48,980 bases of DNA. It comes from a phage. The DNA lies in the sequence record NC_105619.1; one strand, given 5' to 3'. The notes below the pieces were generated by a model. It saw nothing but the letters and a program-made list of their open reading frames with translations. It had not been told where the DNA came from and did no database searches. Below are positions 6,654 through 48,980 of this stretch, in pieces; within the stretch, counting starts at the first letter, position 1; the number at the start of each line of letters is the position of its first letter. A program made the position numbers and the translations under genes.

Positions 6654-6691
6654 CACAAAAACACTTTGACGCTTTAACAAAAAGTGCTATT
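6647..6691 (-). promoter_or_regulatory. reverse-oriented copy of the TAGCA-N5-TGTTA promoter module (antisense to late genes)
   Basis: On minus strand AATAGCACTTTTTGTTAA + 22 nt + TATGAC (preceded by TGt). Confidence 0.35.
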
Positions 6692-6696
6692 ATTGA

Positions 6697-6724
6697 AGCC
6701 GTGAACATAATCACGGCTTTTTTA
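6697..6724 (+). terminator. rho-independent terminator
   Basis: AGCCGTGA-acataa-TCACGGCT followed by TTTTTT. Confidence 0.7.
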
Positions 6725-6744
6725 TTAACTAAGGAGAAATAATT

Positions 6745-7753: not shown

Positions 7754-8041
7754 ATGGCTAAAGAAAAAACTGTTGTTATCGTAAACGTTGGTGTAGCTCT
7801 TCAGATGTTCCGTCTTGAAGATGGTTCCTTTGCTCAAGTTCTTCCAGATGAAGAGGTCACGCTTCCGGCTTCCGTTCTTGATTTACCTGGCCTGCGTTGC
7901 TTAATTGCTCGCGAAGAAATCGAAGTTAAAGACGACAGTGCAACCAACCGCAAAATCCGCGATGAAATGGCAAAGATCACGAAGCCAGATCCGTGGGATA
8001 GCAAAAGCGTTAAAGAGCTTGAGGACGGCGGCGAATATTAA
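7754..8041 (+). CDS. hypothetical structural protein
   Basis: ORF with RBS GGAGAAA downstream of capsid gene. Confidence 0.4.
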   Translation: MAKEKTVVIVNVGVALQMFRLEDGSFAQVLPDEEVTLPASVLDLPGLRCLIAREEIEVKDDSATNRKIRDEMAKITKPDPWDSKSVKELEDGGEY

Positions 8042-10409: not shown

Positions 10410-10454
10410 ATCGTATCAACTTTGCACTATTCTCTTTTAACAAAAAGTGCTATT
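10410..10454 (-). promoter_or_regulatory. reverse-oriented copy of promoter module (antisense to major tail protein gene)
   Basis: Minus strand AATAGCACTTTTTGTTAAAA + 22 nt + TACGAT (TGa-TACGAT). Confidence 0.35.
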
Positions 10455-21806: not shown

Positions 21807-21837
21807 GGATTCATCGTAAACGAAGGAGATAAACGCA

Positions 21838-22902: not shown

Positions 22903-22924
22903 ACGGCACAAATAGCTAAACAAA

Positions 22925-22963
22925 TAATTAATGAGGTGTTATAATGCACCTCATACACCAATC
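22925..22963 (+). promoter_or_regulatory. TATAAT box framed by 8-bp inverted repeat ATGAGGTG/CACCTCAT
   Basis: Same -10-between-IR-arms geometry as the early promoter modules. Confidence 0.4.
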
Positions 22964-25792: not shown

Positions 25793-25810
25793 AATAGCAC
25801 GAATTGCTAA
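25793..25810. repeat. palindromic box AATAGCACGAATTGCTAA in tail-fibre leader
   Basis: TAGCA-CGAAT-TGCTA dyad. Confidence 0.45.
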
Positions 25811-25816
25811 GCAATG

Positions 25817-26808: not shown

Positions 26809-26868
26809 TTCCAGATCTCCAAATAAAAAACGCGTAGAAGGATGTTACCCCGCTACGCGTCGTTTGTT

Positions 26869-27321
26869 TTAACTAAAAATGCTATTGGTCGTCCCGATAT
26901 CTTCCTTCTTCACCACTCGCATAAACTTCTTGTTCTTGCATCGCTTCTCAAGGCACTTACCGTTACCGTCAAACTTGAGGTCGAATCGCAACCATGCCGC
27001 GCGGTATCCTTTACACCCCTGGCGACGGTAAGCGCGATGCGCAGCTTCAGCACCTTGCCATGAAATCATATTGCGTTCTTTCCAGCCCTGCACCGTCTGA
27101 TTGCTAACCTTCAGAGCCTTTGCGCAGGCCGCCGGGCCGCCGTAATATTCGATAAGGGCATCAAGTCTCGCTCGCAGTCCGGCGCGCGTTTCTTCTTTAT
27201 GAATATAGAACCCGCAACGCTGGCGAGGCTTTTTATCTTTACCGCGCCGTGTTCCGTTGTTACCATTGATGTGACGTTTATCGATTTCACCAGTTGATTC
27301 TGCGATACGTTGAATACTCAT
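26869..27321 (-). CDS. hypothetical basic protein with HTH-like segment
   Basis: ..AACAKALKVSNQTVQGWKERN.. resembles an HTH recognition helix; Lys/Arg-rich. Confidence 0.3.
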   Translation of the reverse strand: MSIQRIAESTGEIDKRHINGNNGTRRGKDKKPRQRCGFYIHKEETRAGLRARLDALIEYYGGPAACAKALKVSNQTVQGWKERNMISWQGAEAAHRAYRRQGCKGYRAAWLRFDLKFDGNGKCLEKRCKNKKFMRVVKKEDIGTTNSIFS

Positions 27322-27332
27322 CTTGATTCCCC

Positions 27333-27377
27333 TATAGCACTTTTTGCTAAAAACGTTTACTTTATGCCGTGTATTAT
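27333..27377 (+). promoter_or_regulatory. early promoter module (TAGCACTTTTTGCTA box + 22 nt + TATTAT) overlapping divergent minus-strand promoter
   Basis: Arms AACGTTTAC/GTAAACGTT flank the -10; minus strand reads TTGAAT-N17-TATAAT over the same -10. Confidence 0.5.
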
Positions 27378-27408
27378 AGCGTAAACGTTACAACGATTCA
27401 AAGGATTA

Positions 27409-29433: not shown

Positions 29434-29846
29434 TTACAGACAAAGGTGATTATTTAGAATTTTACGAGAGAGATCCAAGCGACACTCGAAAGGAGGACGC
29501 TCATCAGGTGGATTGTGTATCTTGGCTGAAATACAATTTTCCTCACCTTCTATTTTGGCACACTGTCAATGAAGGTGAAAAAACAATCACATCGGCGCTC
29601 AGGGATGAGCAGGCCGGATTACTTAAAGGCGTGTCAGACTTCGTTATCCTGATTGGTGTTAACTCACGATACCCGTTTGCAGCAATAGAACTAAAGCGGG
29701 TTAATAAGTCAGGCAAAGGAAAGGCGTCACCAGTCAGCGACAAGCAAAGGGAGTTTCTTCGAAAGGTCCGGGAGCGTGGCGGCTTCTCTGCCGTCGCATA
29801 CGGATTCGCGCAATTCAAGATCTCAATTCACGAAATGATGAAATAG
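29430..29846 (+). CDS. VRR-NUC domain nuclease
   Basis: ..DFVILIG..AAIELK..Q..F.. pattern (D-E-K nuclease core). Confidence 0.65.
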   Translation: MITDKGDYLEFYERDPSDTRKEDAHQVDCVSWLKYNFPHLLFWHTVNEGEKTITSALRDEQAGLLKGVSDFVILIGVNSRYPFAAIELKRVNKSGKGKASPVSDKQREFLRKVRERGGFSAVAYGFAQFKISIHEMMK

Positions 29847-29886
29847 CACTTTTTGTTAAAACTGCCGGAATGGAATCTGGCATTAT
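29842..29886 (+). promoter_or_regulatory. early promoter module upstream of dam
   Basis: AATAGCACTTTTTGTTAAAAC + 22 nt + CATTAT; box overlaps TAG stop of upstream gene. Confidence 0.5.
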
Positions 29887-29913
29887 TATTTCACCAAAAC
29901 GAGAGGACTAAAA

Positions 29914-30627: not shown

Positions 30628-30875
30628 TGAACGAGAAAATGATTCCTGTTAAGTTAACTGATCAAGGTTTATGGCTGCTTTATCGAGCTACGTGCTGCGA
30701 AATTATGGAGCGAAACGGATTGACTCAGGATGTTATTGGTTGCGATCTGTGGGAGTTCACTAGTTCCCTTGATATGTCTTTCGATGAGATAAAAAATGAA
30801 CATATCGAGACTTGGCCTTCAATTATCCAGAAAGACGTAGAGGAACTTAAAGCAGATACGATCGTTCAGCACTAA
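30624..30875 (+). CDS. hypothetical protein
   Basis: Overlapping start with dam stop. Confidence 0.4.
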   Translation: MMNEKMIPVKLTDQGLWLLYRATCCEIMERNGLTQDVIGCDLWEFTSSLDMSFDEIKNEHIETWPSIIQKDVEELKADTIVQH

Positions 30876-30909
30876 TTGCTAAAAATACCCGGCGAAAGTC
30901 GGGTATAGT
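30868..30909 (+). promoter_or_regulatory. early promoter module
   Basis: AGCACTAATTGCTAAAAA + 22 nt (containing ACCCGGC-GAAA-GTCGGGT hairpin) + TATAGT. Confidence 0.5.
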
Positions 30910-30941
30910 TATTTCATCGAGACAAGATGAGGAATCAGAAG

Positions 30942-31711: not shown

Positions 31712-32863
31712 ATGTCACAAGCTAAAATCACCACCGAGCAACTTATTGAAGAGCGCATGAGCGGCCTAACACTTCGCGAAATCGCGGAAAAATACGGTAT
31801 GCACATTCGCACTGTTGAAGCGCGCCACGCAAAATTGGCAAAAGAAGGCCACTTCCACGGCAACGAGCATGTTGCTAAGAACGTACCTGAAGGATTCATG
31901 GTAAAAGGTACATCAACGATGATTCGCGGCGATGGGACCGAGGTAGTGCGCTGGGTAAAAACCGATCAGGACCGTGAGAAGATTGCGGCAATGATGGAAG
32001 CGGCGCGTATTGCATTCTGTGAAGACCTGCCGCGAGCAAAGCCAACCGAGCTACTAACCTCGCAAGGGCTTACGACAGCGATGGGTAAGCTGGCACTCTA
32101 TCCGGTATTCGACCTGCACATTGGTGCGCTTGCTCATAAGCATGAATGCGGAGAGAACTACTCTACCGATGTAGCGGAAAAAGTGCTGAGTGACTTCTTT
32201 AATTACGCGATCGATATTGCTCCGAACGCAGAGAAGGCTGTTCTGTTAATCGGCGGTGACTTCCTTCACTCTGACGGTCTTGACGCTGTTACACCAGCAA
32301 GCGGTCACGTTCTGGATCAGGATTCACGATACGCAAAATTGGTGCATGTTGCGATTCGTTCTGTGCGTCGCGCTATCGACAAAATGCTTATGAAACACAA
32401 GGAAGTCGAGGTTCAGATTATTGAAGGTAACCACGACCAGGCCGGGATGATTTGGCTACGTGCTGCAATGTCGGCATATTATGAAGACGAGCCTCGAGTA
32501 TTCGTTGACGTTAGCCCTATGATTCTGCATAAGACTCGATGGGGAAACACCTTATTGGGATACACTCACGGGCACACTATGAAAAAGGCAGACACGCGAC
32601 TTGCAGCGATGGCGGCAGACTTCCGTGCAGACTTCGGAGAGAGCAAGTATGTGTATACTCATAGCGGTCACTGGCATCATCAGACAATCACTGAACACTC
32701 GTTAGGTATCGATGAGGTTCACGGTCAGTTAGGAGCTAAGGATGCATACGCCGCGCGCGGCGGGTGGCGCTCATATCGTCAGGCGGCGGTAATCGTTTAC
32801 GACAAGCAATTTGGTGAGATAGGTCGATTCATCTACCGTCCAGAAATGACAGGATCGCACTAA
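31712..32863 (+). CDS. metallophosphoesterase with N-terminal HTH domain
   Basis: MPP motifs D-x-H (VFDLHIG), GD (IGGDFLHSDG), GNHD (IIEGNHDQ), HGH, HSGHWHH; N-terminal ..LTLREIAEKYGMHIRTVEARHAKL.. HTH. Confidence 0.65.
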   Translation: MSQAKITTEQLIEERMSGLTLREIAEKYGMHIRTVEARHAKLAKEGHFHGNEHVAKNVPEGFMVKGTSTMIRGDGTEVVRWVKTDQDREKIAAMMEAARIAFCEDLPRAKPTELLTSQGLTTAMGKLALYPVFDLHIGALAHKHECGENYSTDVAEKVLSDFFNYAIDIAPNAEKAVLLIGGDFLHSDGLDAVTPASGHVLDQDSRYAKLVHVAIRSVRRAIDKMLMKHKEVEVQIIEGNHDQAGMIWLRAAMSAYYEDEPRVFVDVSPMILHKTRWGNTLLGYTHGHTMKKADTRLAAMAADFRADFGESKYVYTHSGHWHHQTITEHSLGIDEVHGQLGAKDAYAARGGWRSYRQAAVIVYDKQFGEIGRFIYRPEMTGSH

Positions 32864-32897
32864 TTGATAAAAACGCCCGAAGGGATTCGGGTATAGT
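32855..32897 (+). promoter_or_regulatory. early promoter module
   Basis: CGCACTAATTGATAAAAAC + 22 nt (CCCGAA-GGGA-TTCGGG hairpin) + TATAGT. Confidence 0.5.
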
Positions 32898-32928
32898 AAC
32901 CACATCAAAAACAAAGAGGCTACATATC

Positions 32929-36431: not shown

Positions 36432-36460
36432 CACAATAAACTCCTTAGTTGACGGTGTGA

Positions 36461-36505
36461 ATGATACACCGCCAATGTTACACGCGTTTTGCAAAAAGTG
36501 CTATT
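36461..36505 (-). promoter_or_regulatory. early promoter module (minus strand)
   Basis: AATAGCACTTTTTGCAAAAC + 22 nt + TATCAT; arms GGTGT/ACACC flank -10. Confidence 0.5.
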
Positions 36506-36933: not shown

Positions 36934-36960
36934 TCCTGATTGGTTATCTTGAATAAGGCC

Positions 36961-37005
36961 ACTTTATCAAATGACCTTACGGCAATATTAACAAATCGTG
37001 CTATT
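36961..37005 (-). promoter_or_regulatory. early promoter module (minus strand)
   Basis: AATAGCACGATTTGTTAATA + 22 nt + TAAAGT; near-duplicate of module at 43568. Confidence 0.45.
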
Positions 37006-37445: not shown

Positions 37446-37478
37446 TTTTAATTCCTTTATTTCGTTTGGTGTGGGAGT

Positions 37479-37525
37479 AATATACCTTACTCCCTATTTA
37501 TTGTCTTTAGCAATTAGTGCTATCA
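37479..37525 (-). promoter_or_regulatory. early promoter module (minus strand)
   Basis: GATAGCACTAATTGCTAAAG + ~23 nt + TATATT; arms GGGAGTA/TACTCCC flank -10. Confidence 0.45.
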
Positions 37526-37666
37526 GTACTCGGAAATTACTTTACACTCTTTGATTGTTCCACCTAGAACTACTCTCTGCATCATTGCTTGTTGATGGCT
37601 ATCGTAAACGCGAACATTTTTTACGCTGTTAAATTTGCCAGTATAGAAAGTGTGAATATAAATCAT
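37523..37666 (-). CDS. hypothetical small protein (47 aa), translationally coupled (ATGA overlap)
   Basis: ATG overlaps TGA stop of upstream gene; below track cutoff. Confidence 0.25.
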   Translation of the reverse strand: MIYIHTFYTGKFNSVKNVRVYDSHQQAMMQRVVLGGTIKECKVISEY

Positions 37667-38564: not shown

Positions 38565-38595
38565 GATTATTTCCTCGCTTGCTGTTGATGGGATA

Positions 38596-38640
38596 ACTAT
38601 ACCAGCCATCTAGGGCGTGCGTTTAACAAAAAGTGCTATT
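38596..38640 (-). promoter_or_regulatory. early promoter module (minus strand)
   Basis: AATAGCACTTTTTGTTAAAC + 22 nt + TATAGT; arms GATGG/CCATC flank -10. Confidence 0.5.
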
Positions 38641-39027: not shown

Positions 39028-39060
39028 TTTGTTTTTCCTCAATCTCGTTTCGATGAGGTA

Positions 39061-39105
39061 ATTATGCCAAATCACACCGATCGAGTTTTAACAAAAAGTG
39101 CTATC
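39061..39105 (-). promoter_or_regulatory. early promoter module (minus strand)
   Basis: GATAGCACTTTTTGTTAAAAC + 22 nt + CATAAT; arms TCGAT/ATCGA flank -10. Confidence 0.5.
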
Positions 39106-39792
39106 CGCGATAGCTTTAAAAAATCCCCTGGGCGACAGAGATCGTATCAGCTTAGTTTTGGCAGACTTGCCGCCTAGCTTGCTGTGCTGTGCAGAGTACC
39201 CGTCAGGTAGGCTTACAGGTTTTCTCTCGGGCATGACAAAATCGTCAGAGGTCCAAAGGCAAGTTTTCTTCGGGTAAGCATCGCGCGGCGCAATATACAT
39301 CGGGAACCAGGGGTGTGAGTCATTCTCAGGAAGATAGCCGCCATACTCCCAGGGATTGAAAGTGTGATTTGGTTTTCTCCACACAGACGACAGGACGCTT
39401 ACCGGATTCTCAATGATGTAAGTCACGCCAAGGCTATCGCCAATGTTCGCGGCAATCCGGGCGGTGGCGGCAGCCTTCTCCTGGAATAACGGATCGCGTT
39501 CACGCTTTCTTGCGAAGTGAGCGGCACCACTAACAGCCAGGTCAGTGCACGACGGGAAGGCCATAATGAAATCCGGCTTGCCATACACGCCAGCGATAGC
39601 ATCACGCTCAAACGCTGCGTCAATGAACACGTTCACATACTCAATGTTCGGATGCTCCACTCGGGCATTGTACTTTGCATAATCCCCGTGATCGGCTCCG
39701 TCAAAGTTGAAGCACATCACCTTGTTACCTTGCTTAGCCAGTTCATGACCTGCAAGGCCGGAACCGTCGAATAGCGACCAGATTAATTTCAT
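39088..39792 (-). CDS. SAM-dependent DNA methyltransferase-like protein (C5-cytosine MTase-like motifs, compact)
   Basis: Motif-I-like SLFDGSGLAG, Cys-containing FPSCTD (cf. PCQ), ENP (cf. ENV); only 234 aa, no obvious target-recognition domain. Confidence 0.4.
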   Translation of the reverse strand: MKLIWSLFDGSGLAGHELAKQGNKVMCFNFDGADHGDYAKYNARVEHPNIEYVNVFIDAAFERDAIAGVYGKPDFIMAFPSCTDLAVSGAAHFARKRERDPLFQEKAAATARIAANIGDSLGVTYIIENPVSVLSSVWRKPNHTFNPWEYGGYLPENDSHPWFPMYIAPRDAYPKKTCLWTSDDFVMPERKPVSLPDGYSAQHSKLGGKSAKTKLIRSLSPRGFFKAIADSTFC

Positions 39793-39824
39793 TGCAAATA
39801 TCCTCTGATTGGTTGATGAGATGA

Positions 39825-39869
39825 ATCATACCCGATCGGCAGGGCTGATGTGTTGCAAAAAATGCTATT
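39825..39869 (-). promoter_or_regulatory. early promoter module (minus strand)
   Basis: AATAGCATTTTTTGCAACAC + 22 nt (palindrome CCGATCGG) + TATGAT. Confidence 0.5.
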
Positions 39870-40053: not shown

Positions 40054-40075
40054 TTTTTAGCAAAAAGTGCTATCG
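40054..40075 (-). repeat. orphan copy of the box (GATAGCACTTTTTGCTAAAAA) without recognisable -10 at +22
   Basis: Read on minus strand within second AT-rich control region. Confidence 0.4.
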
Positions 40076-40399
40076 ATTACACTTTAACTTGTCACGATTG
40101 TAATATTTGTCTAGAATCGCCATTGTGACAAAATTACGCACTGTGACACCTCACAATATACATATAGATATATGTATATATATAATATATATAGTGTTTT
40201 TTTTATTTATATATATAGATAATTATATTGTAATGGGTGTGTATAGTTGTCTTACATTGTCTAGCGTACTGTTGGCATATTTCTATCTGCATGTTTATAT
40301 ATACAGTACTTTTTTGAGGGTCGTATATTTCTATATGGACTCTAGACAGCTAGACAAATGTTACACGGCTTAAAATCGGCTTGCAGGCATTGACAACTC

Positions 40400-40445
40400 T
40401 ACGTCGCGCTGTAACAATGGCAATTGTTGACACGTTATGACGCCA
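40400..40445 (+). promoter_or_regulatory. tandem sigma70-like promoters with perfect TTGACA -35 boxes upstream of first rightward early gene
   Basis: cattTTGACAactctacgtcgcgctgTAACAAT and aattgTTGACAcgttatgacgcc.. Confidence 0.4.
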
Positions 40446-41004: not shown

Positions 41005-41265
41005 ATGAGCAAGATTAAGCATGACGCCCTGAAAGGTATTTTGATGCGACTGGAGCCAGGCGAGGCATTCCAGCTTAACCCCGAAACGTTCGGATTCGAA
41101 GGTTTCTATCGGCAAGGGTTGCAGATGAGTTCTCCAGCCGATGAGTTTGTCCGATATGTGCGAAAGCAGTTCGGCGTCGAAATGATTAGCCTGGGCAAAG
41201 TGCAAGGCATCCAGCTATTCATTTTCAAGCCAAATAAGATTCGTTGCTTCACTCTGATGAAATAG
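41005..41265 (+). CDS. hypothetical protein
   Basis: RBS AAGGAGGG; start at second ATG. Confidence 0.45.
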   Translation: MSKIKHDALKGILMRLEPGEAFQLNPETFGFEGFYRQGLQMSSPADEFVRYVRKQFGVEMISLGKVQGIQLFIFKPNKIRCFTLMK

Positions 41266-41305
41266 CACTTTTTGTTAAAACCGGATCGGGGTATCTTGAT
41301 ATAGT
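41261..41305 (+). promoter_or_regulatory. early promoter module
   Basis: AATAGCACTTTTTGTTAAAAC + 22 nt + TATAGT (TGa extended); arms GGGGTA/TACCCC flank -10. Confidence 0.55.
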
Positions 41306-41343
41306 TACCCCATCGAAACGAGATACCAATCAGAGGAATCACC

Positions 41344-42096: not shown

Positions 42097-42288
42097 ATGG
42101 CTGATTTTATGCACCAAATGATTGCAGTATTCAAAGGTAGCGAAGATGAGGAAGTAAAAGAGTGCTTTACTGTCAACAAGTCTTATAGCGCTTCGCTAAC
42201 CAGCTTCGGTAACGTATCATTGCTTGATGATAATGGCGATCCCTGGGTATTCGATGAAGATACGGATTGCTTCGAAATTAAAGAATAG
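42097..42288 (+). CDS. hypothetical small acidic protein
   Basis: 63 aa, Asp/Glu-rich. Confidence 0.4.
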   Translation: MADFMHQMIAVFKGSEDEEVKECFTVNKSYSASLTSFGNVSLLDDNGDPWVFDEDTDCFEIKE

Positions 42289-42328
42289 CACTTTTTGTTA
42301 AAACGCGATCATGTGGTTGCGATATAGT
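42284..42328 (+). promoter_or_regulatory. early promoter module
   Basis: AATAGCACTTTTTGTTAAAAC + 22 nt + TATAGT; arms ATGTGGTT/AACCACAT flank -10. Confidence 0.55.
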
Positions 42329-42359
42329 AACCACATCGACAACGAACGAGGACGAGAAC

Positions 42360-42653: not shown

Positions 42654-42845
42654 ATGCGCCCAGGGTATGAGAATCGCACGTTCCCGGTTATCGTTGACTT
42701 TGAAAGAATTACTAGCAACCTGGCATACGTTAACGATGAGCAGTTGCGAGCCGTTGGATTTGTCAGCGGGATGAATAAAGAAGCACTATGCTTCGTTCGC
42801 GAGGAAATGCACGGTTACTATTCTGAGTGTGAGTTAGTTTACTAA
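42654..42845 (+). CDS. hypothetical protein
   Basis: 63-aa ORF. Confidence 0.35.
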   Translation: MRPGYENRTFPVIVDFERITSNLAYVNDEQLRAVGFVSGMNKEALCFVREEMHGYYSECELVY

Positions 42846-42886
42846 GCACGAATTGTCAAATGGTGATTCGTCCTGACTGGTACAAT
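42843..42886 (+). promoter_or_regulatory. early promoter module (variant box)
   Basis: TAAGCACGAATTGTCAAA + 22 nt + TACAAT; arms GGTGATT/AATCACC. Confidence 0.45.
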
Positions 42887-42916
42887 CACCACATCAACCA
42901 CTAAGAGGAAATCATT

Positions 42917-43423: not shown

Positions 43424-43572
43424 TGGCTGCATGGGTTTTGATTATCTTAATGAGTACATGGCCGGATCACGTATACATGGAAAGTCAGCAATCATGCGAC
43501 AAGGCTCGGGAGGTAATTGCAGAGAATAAGCCGTTCGGATATGAAGTAAAAACGATGTGCGTTAAACGATAG
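43423..43572 (+). CDS. hypothetical small protein (49 aa), TAATG-coupled
   Basis: ATG overlaps upstream TAA; hydrophobic N-terminus. Confidence 0.3.
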   Translation: MAAWVLIILMSTWPDHVYMESQQSCDKAREVIAENKPFGYEVKTMCVKR

Positions 43573-43612
43573 CACGAATTGCTAAACCTTCCGCAAGGCC
43601 ATTTGATATAGT
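43568..43612 (+). promoter_or_regulatory. early promoter module
   Basis: GATAGCACGAATTGCTAAACC + 22 nt + TATAGT; arms AAGGCCA/TGGCCTT. Confidence 0.55.
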
Positions 43613-43652
43613 GGCCTTATTGAAGCATGGCAACCAATCAGAGGAATCAGCT

Positions 43653-45019: not shown

Positions 45020-45238
45020 ATGGCTACTATCATGACAGCAGAAGATGCAGCACGCGACGCAGTGGAAGGGATGCGCCCAAATAGCTCCAGAATCGCCCAC
45101 TACTACAAATCTGATGTGTCGGCAGTGCAATTGGTCCATGAAATTTTAAGGCTCCCACAAGTCGATTCAGCGCGCGTGGTGACGTGCTTAAAAAATTATT
45201 TTTGCATCACTATTAAAACGAATAGCACGAATTGCTAA
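45020..45238 (+). CDS. hypothetical protein (uncertain)
   Basis: 72-aa ORF whose 3' end runs into the promoter box. Confidence 0.25.
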   Translation: MATIMTAEDAARDAVEGMRPNSSRIAHYYKSDVSAVQLVHEILRLPQVDSARVVTCLKNYFCITIKTNSTNC

Positions 45239-45265
45239 AACCTATCAAGGGGAATGCGCTATGAT
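45221..45265 (+). promoter_or_regulatory. early promoter module
   Basis: AATAGCACGAATTGCTAAAAC + 22 nt + TATGAT; arms GGGGAAT/ATTCCCC. Confidence 0.55.
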
Positions 45266-45355
45266 TCCCCTACACCAACAAACGAGGAATCACTAATGAA
45301 ACACTTAATTTGCATTGAAACGCCTAACGATGAATACACTCTTCACGGAATATGA

Positions 45356-45742
45356 ATGTTCAAAGGTCACTACATGACAGCAAGCATTCATGATTCGCGT
45401 CTATGCGATGGCGATCTGGTGATTACATCAAAAGAAGTAAATCCGTACATTATGCAGAATCTTGGCGATAACGAATATATGGCCTACGGCTGCAACGCGG
45501 TGTACAAGCATATCAAGATCCGCAAGCGTGTCGTGCGTGCATTCAAGAAGATTGCAATGAAATACTGGAAGATGAGCAAGAAGGACGCCGGACGCTGGGC
45601 GCGCAATGTTGCTGACTCGTACTTCTATCGTAACGGTGAGTCATGCTACTTCCTGATCGATGAAATTATGGAAAACTACGGCGGCGACTTCGGTCAGTGT
45701 AACTTTGACGATTGGGCTGACTATGAGATCAGTTGTTGGTGA
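45356..45742 (+). CDS. hypothetical protein
   Basis: 128-aa ORF preceded by 19-codon mini-ORF with RBS GAGGAA (ATGAATG junction). Confidence 0.45.
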   Translation: MFKGHYMTASIHDSRLCDGDLVITSKEVNPYIMQNLGDNEYMAYGCNAVYKHIKIRKRVVRAFKKIAMKYWKMSKKDAGRWARNVADSYFYRNGESCYFLIDEIMENYGGDFGQCNFDDWADYEISCW

Positions 45743-45785
45743 TAGCACGAATTGCTAAAACTTGCTCAAGGGCATTTGTTAGAAT
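45741..45785 (+). promoter_or_regulatory. early promoter module
   Basis: GATAGCACGAATTGCTAAAAC + 22 nt + TAGAAT (TGt extended); arms AAGGGCA/TGCCCTT. Confidence 0.55.
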
Positions 45786-45825
45786 GCCCTTCGTTGAGTT
45801 AAGCAACCAATCAGAGGAATAAATC

Positions 45826-46545: not shown

Positions 46546-47118
46546 ATGAAAACAGCTATCATTTTAAACGGCGCACCTGGAGCGGGAAAAGACACTATCG
46601 GATGCATCCTGGCTGACACTTACGATCACGTAGCCTTGCGCAGCTTCAAAGCGCCAATGTTTGAGATTGCCCGGGCAATCCTTGGTGAAGCTAACTACGA
46701 GTATTTCATGTTCTTGTATGAGGACCGTCGATATAAAGAAGAGCCAGCATCCATCCTGAACGGTAAAAGCCCACGCCAGTTTATGATCTGGATTAGCGAG
46801 GAAGTCATCAAGCCGCAGTTCGGAAATCGATTCTTCGGTATGCGAGCGGAAAGCAAGGTGAAAGAGTCAAACTCCCTTTCGGTATTTACTGACGGTGGAT
46901 TCAAAGATGAGATCTTGCAAATGATTGAAGGCGATATCCAGGTCAAACTATGCCGCATACATCGCAACGGCTGCAACTTCGATAACGACAGTCGAGATTA
47001 TATCTACCTGGATGATATGATCGGTGTCAACGGTTATCAGGAATGTGACTTCTTCTCTGTCGAAGGTCATCCAGAAATTACCGCTCAGCACATAGCCGCC
47101 ACGTTCATCAATAAATAG
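46546..47118 (+). CDS. P-loop nucleotide/nucleoside-monophosphate kinase-like protein
   Basis: Walker A ..LNGAPGAGKDT.. at N-terminus, as in small phage dNMP/polynucleotide kinases. Confidence 0.55.
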   Translation: MKTAIILNGAPGAGKDTIGCILADTYDHVALRSFKAPMFEIARAILGEANYEYFMFLYEDRRYKEEPASILNGKSPRQFMIWISEEVIKPQFGNRFFGMRAESKVKESNSLSVFTDGGFKDEILQMIEGDIQVKLCRIHRNGCNFDNDSRDYIYLDDMIGVNGYQECDFFSVEGHPEITAQHIAATFINK

Positions 47119-47158
47119 CACGAATTGCTAAAACGTCGATGTGGTGATTTGATATAGT
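47114..47158 (+). promoter_or_regulatory. early promoter module
   Basis: AATAGCACGAATTGCTAAAAC + 22 nt + TATAGT; arms GTCGATG/CATCGAC. Confidence 0.55.
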
Positions 47159-47191
47159 TACCTCATCGACAACCAAGAGAGACAAATCGAA

Positions 47192-48896: not shown

Positions 48897-48906
48897 TAAA
48901 CACTAA

Positions 48907-48966
48907 CCCGCTACGGCGGGTTTTTTTATGCCTGCAATATGGTAAAATAGCACTAAATGTTAAACG
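48907..48966 (+). promoter_or_regulatory. terminator hairpin (CCCGC-TACG-GCGGG + T7) followed by CAATAT/TAAAAT and a copy of the box, upstream of terminase small subunit
   Basis: Same hairpin arms as late modules but loop TACG; AATAGCACTAAATGTTAAAC at 48945-48966 then RBS. Confidence 0.45.
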
Positions 48967-48980
48967 AAGAGGATTGATTT

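Follow-up and report, generated by a model that had tools for sequence, protein, structure and literature searches.

Marbox-like promoter modules in a T1-like phage genome: putative class II promoters for the host activators MarA, SoxS and Rob

The window analysed here (NC_105619.1, 48,980 nt) is the genome of a T1-like phage. It contains 19 full copies of a promoter module, in which a 20-bp box is followed by 18 nt and then by a -10 hexamer, and 6 further sites that consist of the box only. We believe that the modules are probably class II promoters activated by monomers of the host regulators MarA, SoxS, Rob or RamA, and not by a dimer. As read from the sequence, this suggests that most early phage genes may run on a host regulator, not on a dimeric protein. 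What we observe is the match to the host site, the orientation, the spacing, the missing -35, the conservation within the family and the occurrence of the module in lineages that have no regulator in common; protein binding, activator dependence, the start site and the identity of the acting paralogue are what we infer.

T1 belongs to the seven classic T phages, and phages related to it (especially the Klebsiella Weberviruses) are common candidates for therapy. T1-like phages program the host RNA polymerase with no polymerase or sigma factor of their own. If our reading is true, phage expression would be tied to regulators of clinical multidrug resistance that respond to bile salts, salicylate and oxidants; resistant strains with raised mar/ram, or bacteria treated with inducers, may support the phage better; and cells could become phage-resistant by losing MarA-type regulators, at the price of their drug resistance. 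The approximately 20 consensus sites per phage genome could also titrate the host regulon in infection, and the modules would be compact, strong, activator-dependent promoter parts.

Layout and distribution of the modules

The consensus of the box is ATAGCAC-nnn-TTG-Y-TAAAAC. Its core TAGCA-N5-TGYTA, described as a repeated element in an earlier note made from the sequence, has 25 strand hits in a scan of the window (0.18 expected). All 17 copies listed in that note are present where it had placed them, the minus-strand figures denoting the low end, i.e., the -10; two more full modules, 22903(+) and 26885(-), are added here. The modules are the following.

22903..22953, plus strand: additional module before an Erf-like gene; box ACGGCACAAATAGCTAAACA, 17 nt, TATAAT; hairpin arms GAGGTG/CACCTC
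26835..26885, minus strand: weak module before the primase gene; -10-like TAACAT, flanked by the arms of a genuine terminator hairpin, complete with T-run (ACGCGTAG...CTACGCGTTTTTT)
27334..27384, plus strand: helicase module; box ATAGCACTTTTTGCTAAAAA; -10 TATTAT at 27372-27377; arms CGTTTAC/GTAAACG
29843..29893, plus strand: Dam methylase module, orthologue of T1 Pdam; -10 CATTAT
30866..30916, plus strand: module; -10 TATAGT, separated from the box by a tight hairpin CCCGGCgaaaGTCGGG
32854..32904, plus strand: module of the operon leading into the lysis genes; in-spacer hairpin CCCGAAgggaTTCGGG, then -10 TATAGT
36454..36504, minus strand: module; box ATAGCACTTTTTGCAAAACG; -10 TATCAT; arms GGCGGTG/CACCGTC
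36954..37004, minus strand: module; box ATAGCACGATTTGTTAATAT; -10 TAAAGT; arms AAGGTCA/TGGCCTT
37473..37523, minus strand: module; box ATAGCACTAATTGCTAAAGA; -10 TATATT, 1 nt beyond the standard distance; arms GGGAGTA/TACTCCC
38589..38639, minus strand: module; box ATAGCACTTTTTGTTAAACG; -10 TATAGT; arms GATGG/CCATC
39054..39104, minus strand: module; box ATAGCACTTTTTGTTAAAAC; -10 CATAAT
39818..39868, minus strand: module with a degenerate box ATAGCATTTTTTGCAACAC; -10 TATGAT; upstream of the methylase gene at 39792
41262..41312, plus strand: module at the site singled out in the earlier note; box ATAGCACTTTTTGTTAAAAC at 41262-41281; TGa and -10 TATAGT at 41297-41305; 5' arm GGGGTA at 41288-41293, 3' arm TACCCC at 41306-41311; predicted +1 A41312; gene from 41344
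42285..42335, plus strand: module; box ATAGCACTTTTTGTTAAAAC; -10 TATAGT at 42323-42328; arms ATGTGGTT/AACCACAT
42843..42893, plus strand: module with a weaker box TAAGCACGAATTGTCAAATG; -10 TACAAT at 42881-42886; arms GGTGATT/AATCACC
43569..43619, plus strand: module; box ATAGCACGAATTGCTAAACC; -10 TATAGT; arms AAGGCCA/TGGCCTT
45222..45272, plus strand: module before the orf65 orthologue; box ATAGCACGAATTGCTAAAAC; -10 TATGAT; arms AGGGGAAT/ATTCCCCT
45742..45792, plus strand: module before the polynucleotide kinase gene; -10 TAGAAT; arms AAGGGCAT/ATGCCCTT
47115..47165, plus strand: module; -10 TATAGT; long imperfect stem GTCGATGtGGTga...tACCtCATCGAC, with G.T pairs in orthologues

The modules head most of the non-structural operons (early, replication and lysis) and number approximately 20 per 49-kb genome. 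Stop codons of the upstream genes do fall in or at the box, as had been noticed before, and the 5'UTRs downstream of the modules are 11-34 nt long. The spacing of exactly 22 nt claimed earlier stands for 16 of the 19 modules, where 22 nt counted from TGYTA equal 18 nt when the count begins after the 20-bp box. It does not hold for the other three: the distance is longer by one in 37523(-) and shorter by one in 22903(+), and the box of 39868(-) is 1 nt shorter with the total distance unchanged.

Among the 379 distinct modules of approximately 25 related genomes, 309 have a -10-like hexamer (A2, T6) at exactly the expected offset; the selection of modules had demanded A2 and T6. Beyond the selected positions, T is found at the first position in 79% and at the third position in 83%. 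G stands at -14 in 85% of the modules, and the full TG of an extended -10 in about half. The A located 7 nt past the hexamer is conserved in 86% and is likely to be the +1. The window modules have no usable -35 at 16-18 bp from the -10, in agreement with the earlier reading. A generic scan for sigma-70 -35/-10 pairs returned 30 sites in the window against 27 expected, essentially none of them at modules; with the scan at chance level, we rejected a canonical -35/-10 reading of the modules. The class II geometry proposed earlier is borne out, i.e., an activator-type site without a -35, the centre of which lies near -41 if the inferred +1 is accepted.

The module occurs family-wide in Drexlerviridae: T1 has 20 boxes, SA12KD has 21, and the Klebsiella Webervirus Shelby has 14, of which 12 belong to full modules. 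The same module is found in the podoviruses C130_2 (Hungariovirus) and IME_EC2 (Murrayvirus), which share only replication and methylase proteins with the window phage; Pir is absent from both, and neither has any other regulator in common with the window phage. A replication module is common to all three lineages, and its transfer could have carried along the promoters and a small regulator below the detection of sequence searches.

A part of this element has been described before. A 21-nt direct repeat aaATAGCACnnnTTGnTAAAA, reported in phage TLS and noted also for T1, Rtp and Rogue1, is identical to our element: it is oriented alike with respect to genes, lies approximately 76 nt before start codons and has the same A/T/G subtypes (PMC11447400). 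The authors settled on no role for the repeat, naming a stoperator, enhancer site or UP element as options, and found only three sigma-70 promoters (PMC11447400). New relative to that description are the fixed -10 at +18, the identity with the marbox, the hairpin and the presence outside Drexlerviridae. Our literature search found no paper linking marboxes with T1-like phages.

The box as a probable host marbox

The marbox has been defined as gcannwwntgnnaaa (PMC12052159); the longer consensus is AYnGCACnnWnnRYYAAAYn, with GCAC as the A site and YAAA as the B site. The window contains 19 perfect matches to the short form, where 1.08 are expected, and 20 matches to AYNGCACNNWNNRYYAAAY with at most one mismatch (1.26 expected). 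If the marbox is combined with the exact spacing and the A2/T6 of the -10, there are 15 exact hits against 0.06 expected. The phage box is identical to the mar marbox at 16 of 20 positions. The box positions that vary in phages, 8-10 and 14, coincide with n, W or Y positions of the marbox consensus; positions 3 (A) and 11 (T), nearly invariant in phages, are unspecified in it.

The earlier note had read the core as a palindrome bound by a dimeric protein. We find this claim unsupported, considering that the box is conserved asymmetrically, has one orientation relative to the -10 and matches the asymmetric marbox of the monomeric MarA, SoxS and Rob. Four of the five pairs of the dyad TAGCA/TGCTA are invariant; in the fifth, G (100%) is opposite position 14, which is C in 58% and T in 40%. 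Two conserved parts of the box, C7 and the AAAAC at its 3' end, have no symmetric partner. A symmetric dimer operator is expected to be independent of orientation, and this is not what is found: AAAAC faces the promoter in all 19 full modules, and a -10 at +18 from a reversed box, conserved in orthologues, was never found. The centre of the box falls into three discrete subtypes (TTT, GAA and TAA), grouped by genome region.

Class II promoters carry a forward marbox near -41, which overlaps the -35 position, and have no recognisable -35; Rob pushes sigma region 4 off that position. In micF of E. coli K-12, ACAGCACTGAATGTCAAAAC is followed by 18 nt, TAGAAT, 7 nt and the +1, so that box, orientation and gap are the same as in the phage module; in E. 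coli fumC, the marbox is followed by 18-19 nt and a -10-like TAATAA. In a comparison with micF, fumC, lpxC P2, lpxL P1 and rfaY P1, the properties common to the phage modules and the class II MarA/SoxS/Rob promoters are an asymmetric box of 20 bp (A site GCAC, B site YAAA), its forward orientation on the -35 position, a centre near -41, 18-19 bp to a sigma-70 -10, and the lack of a usable -35. The phage boxes are closer to the consensus than that of micF. Unlike the E. coli promoters, the phage modules number approximately 20 in 49 kb and are mostly nested in a covarying hairpin.

In the mechanism that we propose, the box is the predicted binding site of the host monomeric AraC-family activators MarA, SoxS and Rob, and RamA would be the corresponding activator in Klebsiella, Salmonella and Enterobacter. 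The bound activator would replace the recognition of a -35, the RNA polymerase would be recruited via the alpha C-terminal domain and sigma region 4, and transcription would start from the conserved A, 7 nt past the hexamer. Rob, being constitutive and abundant, is the obvious candidate. Unstressed cells contain little MarA and SoxS, and most of their Rob is aggregated; it would be surprising if a fast virulent phage relied on them. We rejected a phage-encoded MarA-like protein: tblastn found no MarA/SoxS/Rob homologue encoded in the window (best E = 0.57), and a weak hit to gp22 of IME_EC2 (E = 0.001) was unconfirmed by Pfam.

T4 middle promoters resemble the modules: they too are phage promoters that have, in place of the -35, an activator box set at a constant distance from a sigma-70 -10. 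The MotA box of T4 lies approximately 12 bp from the -10 and requires the phage-coded MotA and AsiA; the box considered here differs in lying 18 bp from the -10 and in matching a host activator site. The sites of lambda cI at PRM and of CRP/FNR at class II promoters are also located near -42, where the activator contacts RNA polymerase; they are symmetric and bound by dimers, whereas the phage box is asymmetric and orientation-specific.

Pir, Orf65 and other candidate factors

The pir gene (26869..27321, minus strand; the orthologue of T1 Orf23) encodes a 150-aa protein, plausibly a dimer, with a predicted Cro-like single helix-turn-helix. The box might be the operator of a Pir dimer placed on TAGCA-N5-TGCTA near -42 and activating as lambda cI does at PRM; we consider this unlikely. 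It agrees with the status of Pir as a family core gene (824 phage records), with its modelled Cro-like fold and with the four invariant dyad pairs. Reporters from T1 have Pir activating Pdam, where a box is present, and repressing the pir promoter, downstream of which lies a reversed box; some boxes could therefore be sites of Pir action. (Pdam was also active in lysate of uninfected cells.) However, in the same reporters Porf65, with a perfect box that is the most symmetric one, was Pir-independent, while Phol (activated by Pir) and PrecE respond without any box. Two results speak against Pir as the cognate regulator: published Pir responses do not follow the box, and an identical module is present in C130_2 and IME_EC2, both without Pir. 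The asymmetric conservation and the single orientation also disagree with such an operator. Pir as a two-helix-turn-helix mimic of MarA was rejected as well, the model having a single Cro-like helix-turn-helix.

Both factors might be combined, with host MarA/SoxS/Rob firing the modules first, Pir (or Orf65 in Tunavirus) modulating subsets of them later on the same or adjacent DNA, and the T/G/A subtypes setting the order. The three discrete subtypes clustered by region fit such dual use, as do the effects of Pir and Orf65 on some box promoters and a possible Pir motif, CGTTTACG, which occurs at PrecE and Ppir and also precedes two modules. The enrichment of this motif is weak, though (5 hits against 1.5 expected), and Orf65 is restricted to close relatives, and we give the scheme a low probability. 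Orf65 as the binder of the box itself was rejected: its homologues occur only in close relatives and not in Shelby, which has 14 boxes, and its AlphaFold model (pLDDT 54) is unusable.

Two more readings appear very improbable to us. RNA polymerase might recognise the box with no protein factor, as a UP-like or displaced -35-like element acting with an extended -10. TTGYTA is similar to a -35 hexamer, AAAAC is rich in A, an extended -10 of the TGn type is present in many modules, and UP elements were suggested by the TLS authors (PMC11447400); but the gap of 22 bp from TTGYTA to the -10 is beyond the range of sigma-70, recognition of a UP element or a -35 makes no use of the invariant GCAC, and the exact match to the marbox would be left as a coincidence. 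It is equally hard to credit another host protein, e.g., Lrp, or repressor sites of the stoperator kind, which the TLS authors had raised (PMC11447400): the fixed 18-bp phasing to the -10 and the single orientation indicate a promoter element. As regards Lrp, what we take to be its SELEX consensus, YAGHAWATTWTDCTR, fits the TAGCA-N5-TGCTA half-sites, with 11-12 of 15 positions matching; yet Lrp usually works via arrays of sites, and the asymmetric positions, the one orientation and the geometry identical to micF suit a marbox better, on which grounds the Lrp site was rejected. A sigma-54 promoter (TGGCAC-N5-TTGC, having GG at -24 and GC at -12) was also rejected: the box reads TAGCAC-N3-TTGC, with AG for GG and 2 bp missing, and a sigma-70 -10 stands at a fixed distance.

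Box-only sites and the hairpin around the -10

The sites having a box without the full module, and the canonical promoters near boxes, are listed below.

6666-6693, plus strand: late promoter of the major capsid gene, TTGACG-16-TATTAT, followed by a terminator hairpin at 6695-6725
6671-6690, minus strand: reversed box filling the spacer of the capsid promoter, in a putative repression geometry
10434..10453, minus strand: reversed box in the gap separating the major tail gene from the late gene that follows
16623, plus strand: weak box-only site
25794..25813, plus strand: box-only site, its dyad TAGCACGAATTGCTA perfect, located 21 nt upstream of the minus-strand tail-fibre gene
27373..27401, minus strand: canonical sigma-70 promoter of pir, TTGAAT-17-TATAAT, face to face with the overlapping helicase module; its box is reversed and downstream of the start
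40054..40073, minus strand: reversed box-only site centred at approximately -61 of a canonical rightward promoter (40089-40117), a class I-like geometry
48940..48966, plus strand: box-only site at 48947-48966, 14 nt ahead of window position 1, the start codon of terS; overlapped by a possible extended -10 TGgTAAAAT and preceded by a terminator at 48905-48922

Reversed boxes in canonical promoters or just downstream of them (capsid, terS and pir) would repress these promoters. A marbox within the promoter spacer of pbpG represses transcription, and the capsid promoter at 6666-6693 is similar in that its spacer is filled by the reversed box, where repression is putative. The rob gene is a further case of marbox-mediated repression. 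A wider scheme would be that several unrelated lineages of virulent phages infecting Enterobacteriaceae (Drexlerviridae, Hungariovirus and Murrayvirus) gave most of their early and middle operons to host MarA/SoxS/Rob/RamA, that reversed boxes in late promoters repress, that titration of the activator by replicating phage DNA times the switch from early to late, and that hairpins formed only upon read-through insulate the operons; taken as a whole, we regard it as tentative and rather doubtful.

The arms of the covarying hairpin flank the -10, one lying in the spacer and the other in the region from -6 to -1, with loops of 8-12 nt. Mispairs in the arms are G.T in 17 cases and A.C in 2, a bias which points to pairing on the sense strand, i.e., in RNA; given this bias and the loop lengths, we rejected the idea that the inverted repeat serves as a cruciform in the DNA. 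The hairpin can be formed only by transcripts reading through from the upstream operon. We presume that it most likely ends or stabilises these read-through transcripts, and RNAs initiated at the module would escape it. Annotations of T1 and SA12KD treat the hairpin as an intrinsic terminator, which we rejected: the usual sequence past the 3' arm is ATCGAAACGA, with no U-tract. A true T-run is found only in module 26885(-); the in-spacer hairpins are followed by a -10 region that is moderately rich in T. Comparison with Rfam in the analysis of the modules gave no family match. The arms of the 36954 module include one G.T pair that is repaired in some orthologues, and orthologues of the 42285 module have the arms GGGGTT/AACCCC, a compensatory change.

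The promoter module

The window (48,980 bp) spans all or nearly all of the genome of a T1-like siphophage. T1 and SA12KD are collinear with it, and its early region shares about 87% identity with Escherichia phages phiD2-2 and vB_EcoS_SH2. Position 1 is where the start codon of terS lies; the right-hand early operons thus continue straight into the structural genes.

The core TAGCA-N5-TGYTA has 25 strand matches in the window against 0.18 expected. When aligned, the copies yield a 20-bp box, ATAGCAC-nnn-TTG-Y-TAAAAC, and, after a gap of 18 nt, a hexamer in which A2 and T6 never vary (TATAGT, CATAAT and TATTAT among them). All 17 copies named in the earlier note were located; two further full modules, 22903(+) and 26885(-), and six box-only sites were found. 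As the same note described, upstream genes often end at the box, with stop codons within or at it; the 5'UTRs are 11-34 nt long. A generic -35/-10 scan of the window returned 30 sites versus 27 expected, i.e., the chance level, and missed the modules, so the claim that they have no usable -35 is correct.

Related sequence from IMG/VR (1.1 Mb) contains 379 distinct modules, and in 309 of them a -10-like hexamer stands at exactly the module offset. Position -14 is G in 85% of modules, and in 86% an A, preceded by C, lies 7 nt past the hexamer, as would be expected of a transcription start. Just past this predicted start the initial transcribed sequence is conserved as C-CATCGAAAC-AA (module offsets +46 to +60, e.g., 41309-41323), also in the modules of Escherichia phage C130_2; it could influence promoter escape, RNA processing or translation. 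The boxes of the window also fall into three discrete subtypes according to the central triplet, which are clustered by genome region; the subtype may set affinity or timing.

Box subtypes and their location
TTT: near the divergent early start and within the replication genes
GAA: distal rightward early operons
TAA: before the lysis operon and terS

Candidate binding proteins

Judged by its sequence, the box matches the marbox, the site at which three monomeric E. coli proteins of the AraC family, MarA, SoxS and Rob, bind. The older consensus of Martin et al. 1999 is reportedly AYnGCACnnWnnRYYAAAYn; in this form it has 20 matches in the window with at most one mismatch, versus 1.26 expected. 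The working definition of the Grainger laboratory, gcannwwntgnnaaa (PMC12052159), has 19 perfect matches versus 1.08 expected, and the marbox pattern combined with the exact gap and hexamer A2/T6 has 15 versus 0.06. The phage boxes vary exactly where the marbox consensus has n, W or Y. Box positions A3 and T11, invariant yet unexplained by this consensus, count against the marbox reading.

The closest known counterpart is micF of E. coli K-12, where ACAGCACTGAATGTCAAAAC is followed by 18 nt, TAGAAT, 7 nt and the annotated micF 5' end: the same box, in the same orientation and with the same gap as in the phage module. The E. coli mar marbox (ATGCCACGTTTTGCTAAATC read forward) is identical to the phage TTT box at 16 of 20 positions, and in fumC the -10-like TAATAA comes 18-19 nt after a consensus marbox. 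The literature treats micF as the structural paradigm for class II promoters: the box is centred at -41.5, with the A site GCAC and the B site CAAA, the latter overlapping the -35 position, and bound Rob occludes sigma region 4. Class II sites are in general forward and near -41, in promoters without a recognisable -35, and one motif is common to MarA, SoxS, Rob and RamA, with Rob having the highest affinity. The class II part of the earlier interpretation is supported.

The dimeric binding protein proposed together with it is not, considering the asymmetry of the box and the single orientation of the modules (identical in 19 of 19 functional modules of the window). Of the five dyad pairs, four do not vary, and in the fifth an invariant G faces C (58%) or T (40%); C7 and the 3' AAAAC are without counterparts in the dyad. 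The pseudo-dyad GCA-N5-TG(Y) is contained in the marbox consensus itself.

No homologue of MarA, SoxS or Rob was found encoded in the window. The phage does encode Pir, the orthologue of T1 Orf23, which is present in 824 phage records, matches the P22-Cro helix-turn-helix weakly, and has a confident AlphaFold model resembling the Xfaso1 and N15 Cro proteins. Box status was read from the T1 sequences of the reporter fragments of Laganenka et al. (mBio 2019), and the comparison indicates that the Pir response does not track the box.

T1 reporter fragments: box status, and regulation according to Laganenka et al. (mBio 2019)
Pdam: box present; activated by Pir
Porf65: perfect box; Pir-independent, activated by Orf65
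Ppir: reversed box downstream of canonical TTGAAT-17-TATAAT; repressed by Pir and Orf65
Phol: no box; activated by Pir
PrecE: no box; repressed by Pir

Homologues of Orf65 are confined to close relatives. Klebsiella phage Shelby (Webervirus), with Pir and 14 boxes, 12 of them in full modules, lacks the protein.

Two podoviruses outside Drexlerviridae, Escherichia phage C130_2 (Hungariovirus; 8 boxes) and Enterobacteria phage IME_EC2 (Murrayvirus; 7 boxes versus 0.43 expected), combine P22-like virion genes with a T1-like replication module and have the same modules of box, 18-nt gap and -10. Neither Pir nor a MarA-like protein was found in them. The only proteins they have in common with the window phage are RecE, Erf, primase, helicase, a VRR-NUC protein and two methylases, and their modules head lineage-specific genes too. 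The simplest binder would be a host factor common to Enterobacteriaceae. We consider it very likely that host MarA, SoxS, Rob or RamA at least bind the boxes in the cell, and we presume, with less assurance, that they are the physiological activators of the modules.

The repeat as such is not new, since the 2024 re-annotation of phage TLS (PMC11447400) already describes it as a 21-nt direct repeat, aaATAGCACnnnTTGnTAAAA, with 21 copies oriented with transcription about 76 nt ahead of start codons and with occurrences in T1, Rtp and Rogue1. Its authors, who report only three sigma-70 promoters, suggested that it might act as a stoperator, an enhancer site or an UP element; their paper does not say that a -10 follows at a constant spacing. 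Our literature search found no paper tying marboxes to T1-like phages; the link may nonetheless be published.

Further observations concern Orf65, Pir and the podoviruses. The orthologue of T1 orf65 (45296-45355 and 45356-45742) has an in-frame stop after about 19 codons, so the gene is truncated or split in this phage; an ATG directly past the stop opens a 128-aa ORF. The motif CGTTTACG (7780-7787, 21815-21822, 27380-27387, 32794-32801 and 37603-37610) is weakly enriched in the window (5 matches versus 1.5 expected). Copies lie a short way downstream of the promoters of recE and pir, both Pir-repressed in T1, and also upstream of two modules; the motif is a possible Pir operator. Finally, the phage of record OR754315.1, with Stutzerimonas stutzeri as the recorded host, matches the enterobacterial C130_2 at 95.6% identity across 69% of the query. 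This host assignment looks doubtful; if right, the phage would offer a way to test dependence on a host factor.

A covarying hairpin around the -10

The 18-nt spacer is complementary to the 6 nt that separate the hexamer from +1, a feature absent from the earlier note. The hairpin occupies offsets +25 to +48 from the T of TAGCA (e.g., 41288-41311), and its arms vary by copy: GGGGTA/TACCCC (41288/41306), AAGGCCA/TGGCCTT, AAGGGCAT/ATGCCCTT. For 312 distinct modules the mean folding energy at offsets 17-64 is -12.5 kcal/mol versus -6.8 after shuffling, and 40% of modules have at least 6 contiguous pairs flanking the -10 versus 7% with permuted partners. The register is sharp: at i+j = 73, runs of at least 5 pairs occur in 28% of modules versus 5% in the control, Watson-Crick pairing is 0.48 versus 0.33 +/- 0.01, and mutual information is 0.12-0.24 bit versus at most 0.08. 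Orthologous promoters differ by compensatory changes, such as GTGGTT/AACCAC versus GGGGTT/AACCCC. Some copies (30866, 32854) have an alternative geometry, a tight hairpin within the spacer; one or the other is present in 226 of the 312 modules.

Internal non-Watson-Crick pairs are G.T in 17 cases versus A.C in 2, which points to pairing of the sense strand, i.e., in RNA. The predicted +1 lies just past the 3' arm, so RNAs started at a module would be without the hairpin, and only read-through RNAs from upstream operons could form it. Annotations of T1 and SA12KD place "rho-independent terminators" where these hairpins lie. Most of them are not canonical terminators, since the U-tract is missing; the hairpin of module 26885(-), with a true T-run, is the exception. 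Our best guess for their role is an action on the 3' ends of upstream transcripts, which the hairpins would define, attenuate or stabilise, their arms presumably being squeezed into the sole unconstrained bases of the promoter.

Reversed boxes and canonical promoters

Reversed box sites and canonical promoters of the window
6666-6693: major capsid gene promoter, canonical TTGACG-16-TATTAT, spacer filled by a reversed box
40073(-): reversed box, centre at about -61 from the canonical rightward promoter 40089-40117, a class I-like position
40089-40117: canonical sigma-70 promoter, TTGTCA-17-TAGAAT
40390-40418: canonical sigma-70 promoter, TTGACA-17-AACAAT

The geometry at the capsid promoter is that from which MarA, SoxS and Rob repress pbpG. 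At Ppir the reversed box is just past the start, an arrangement kept in Shelby, and terS is preceded by a strong terminator and then a possible extended -10 overlapped by a box. A single factor, activating early promoters and repressing some late ones, would be consistent with these placements.

The late promoters of the capsid gene (6666-6725) and terS (48905-48980) adjoin strong terminators. The predicted capsid start is inside the 5' arm of the hairpin, so that RNA initiated at this point would bypass the terminator, which is the design principle of the early modules.

Between the divergent early arms lie 350 bp of AT-rich non-coding DNA containing TATA-type repeats (40090-40440). The canonical promoters 40089-40117 and 40390-40418 are probably activator-independent immediate-early promoters, and the region may also carry a pac or origin function.
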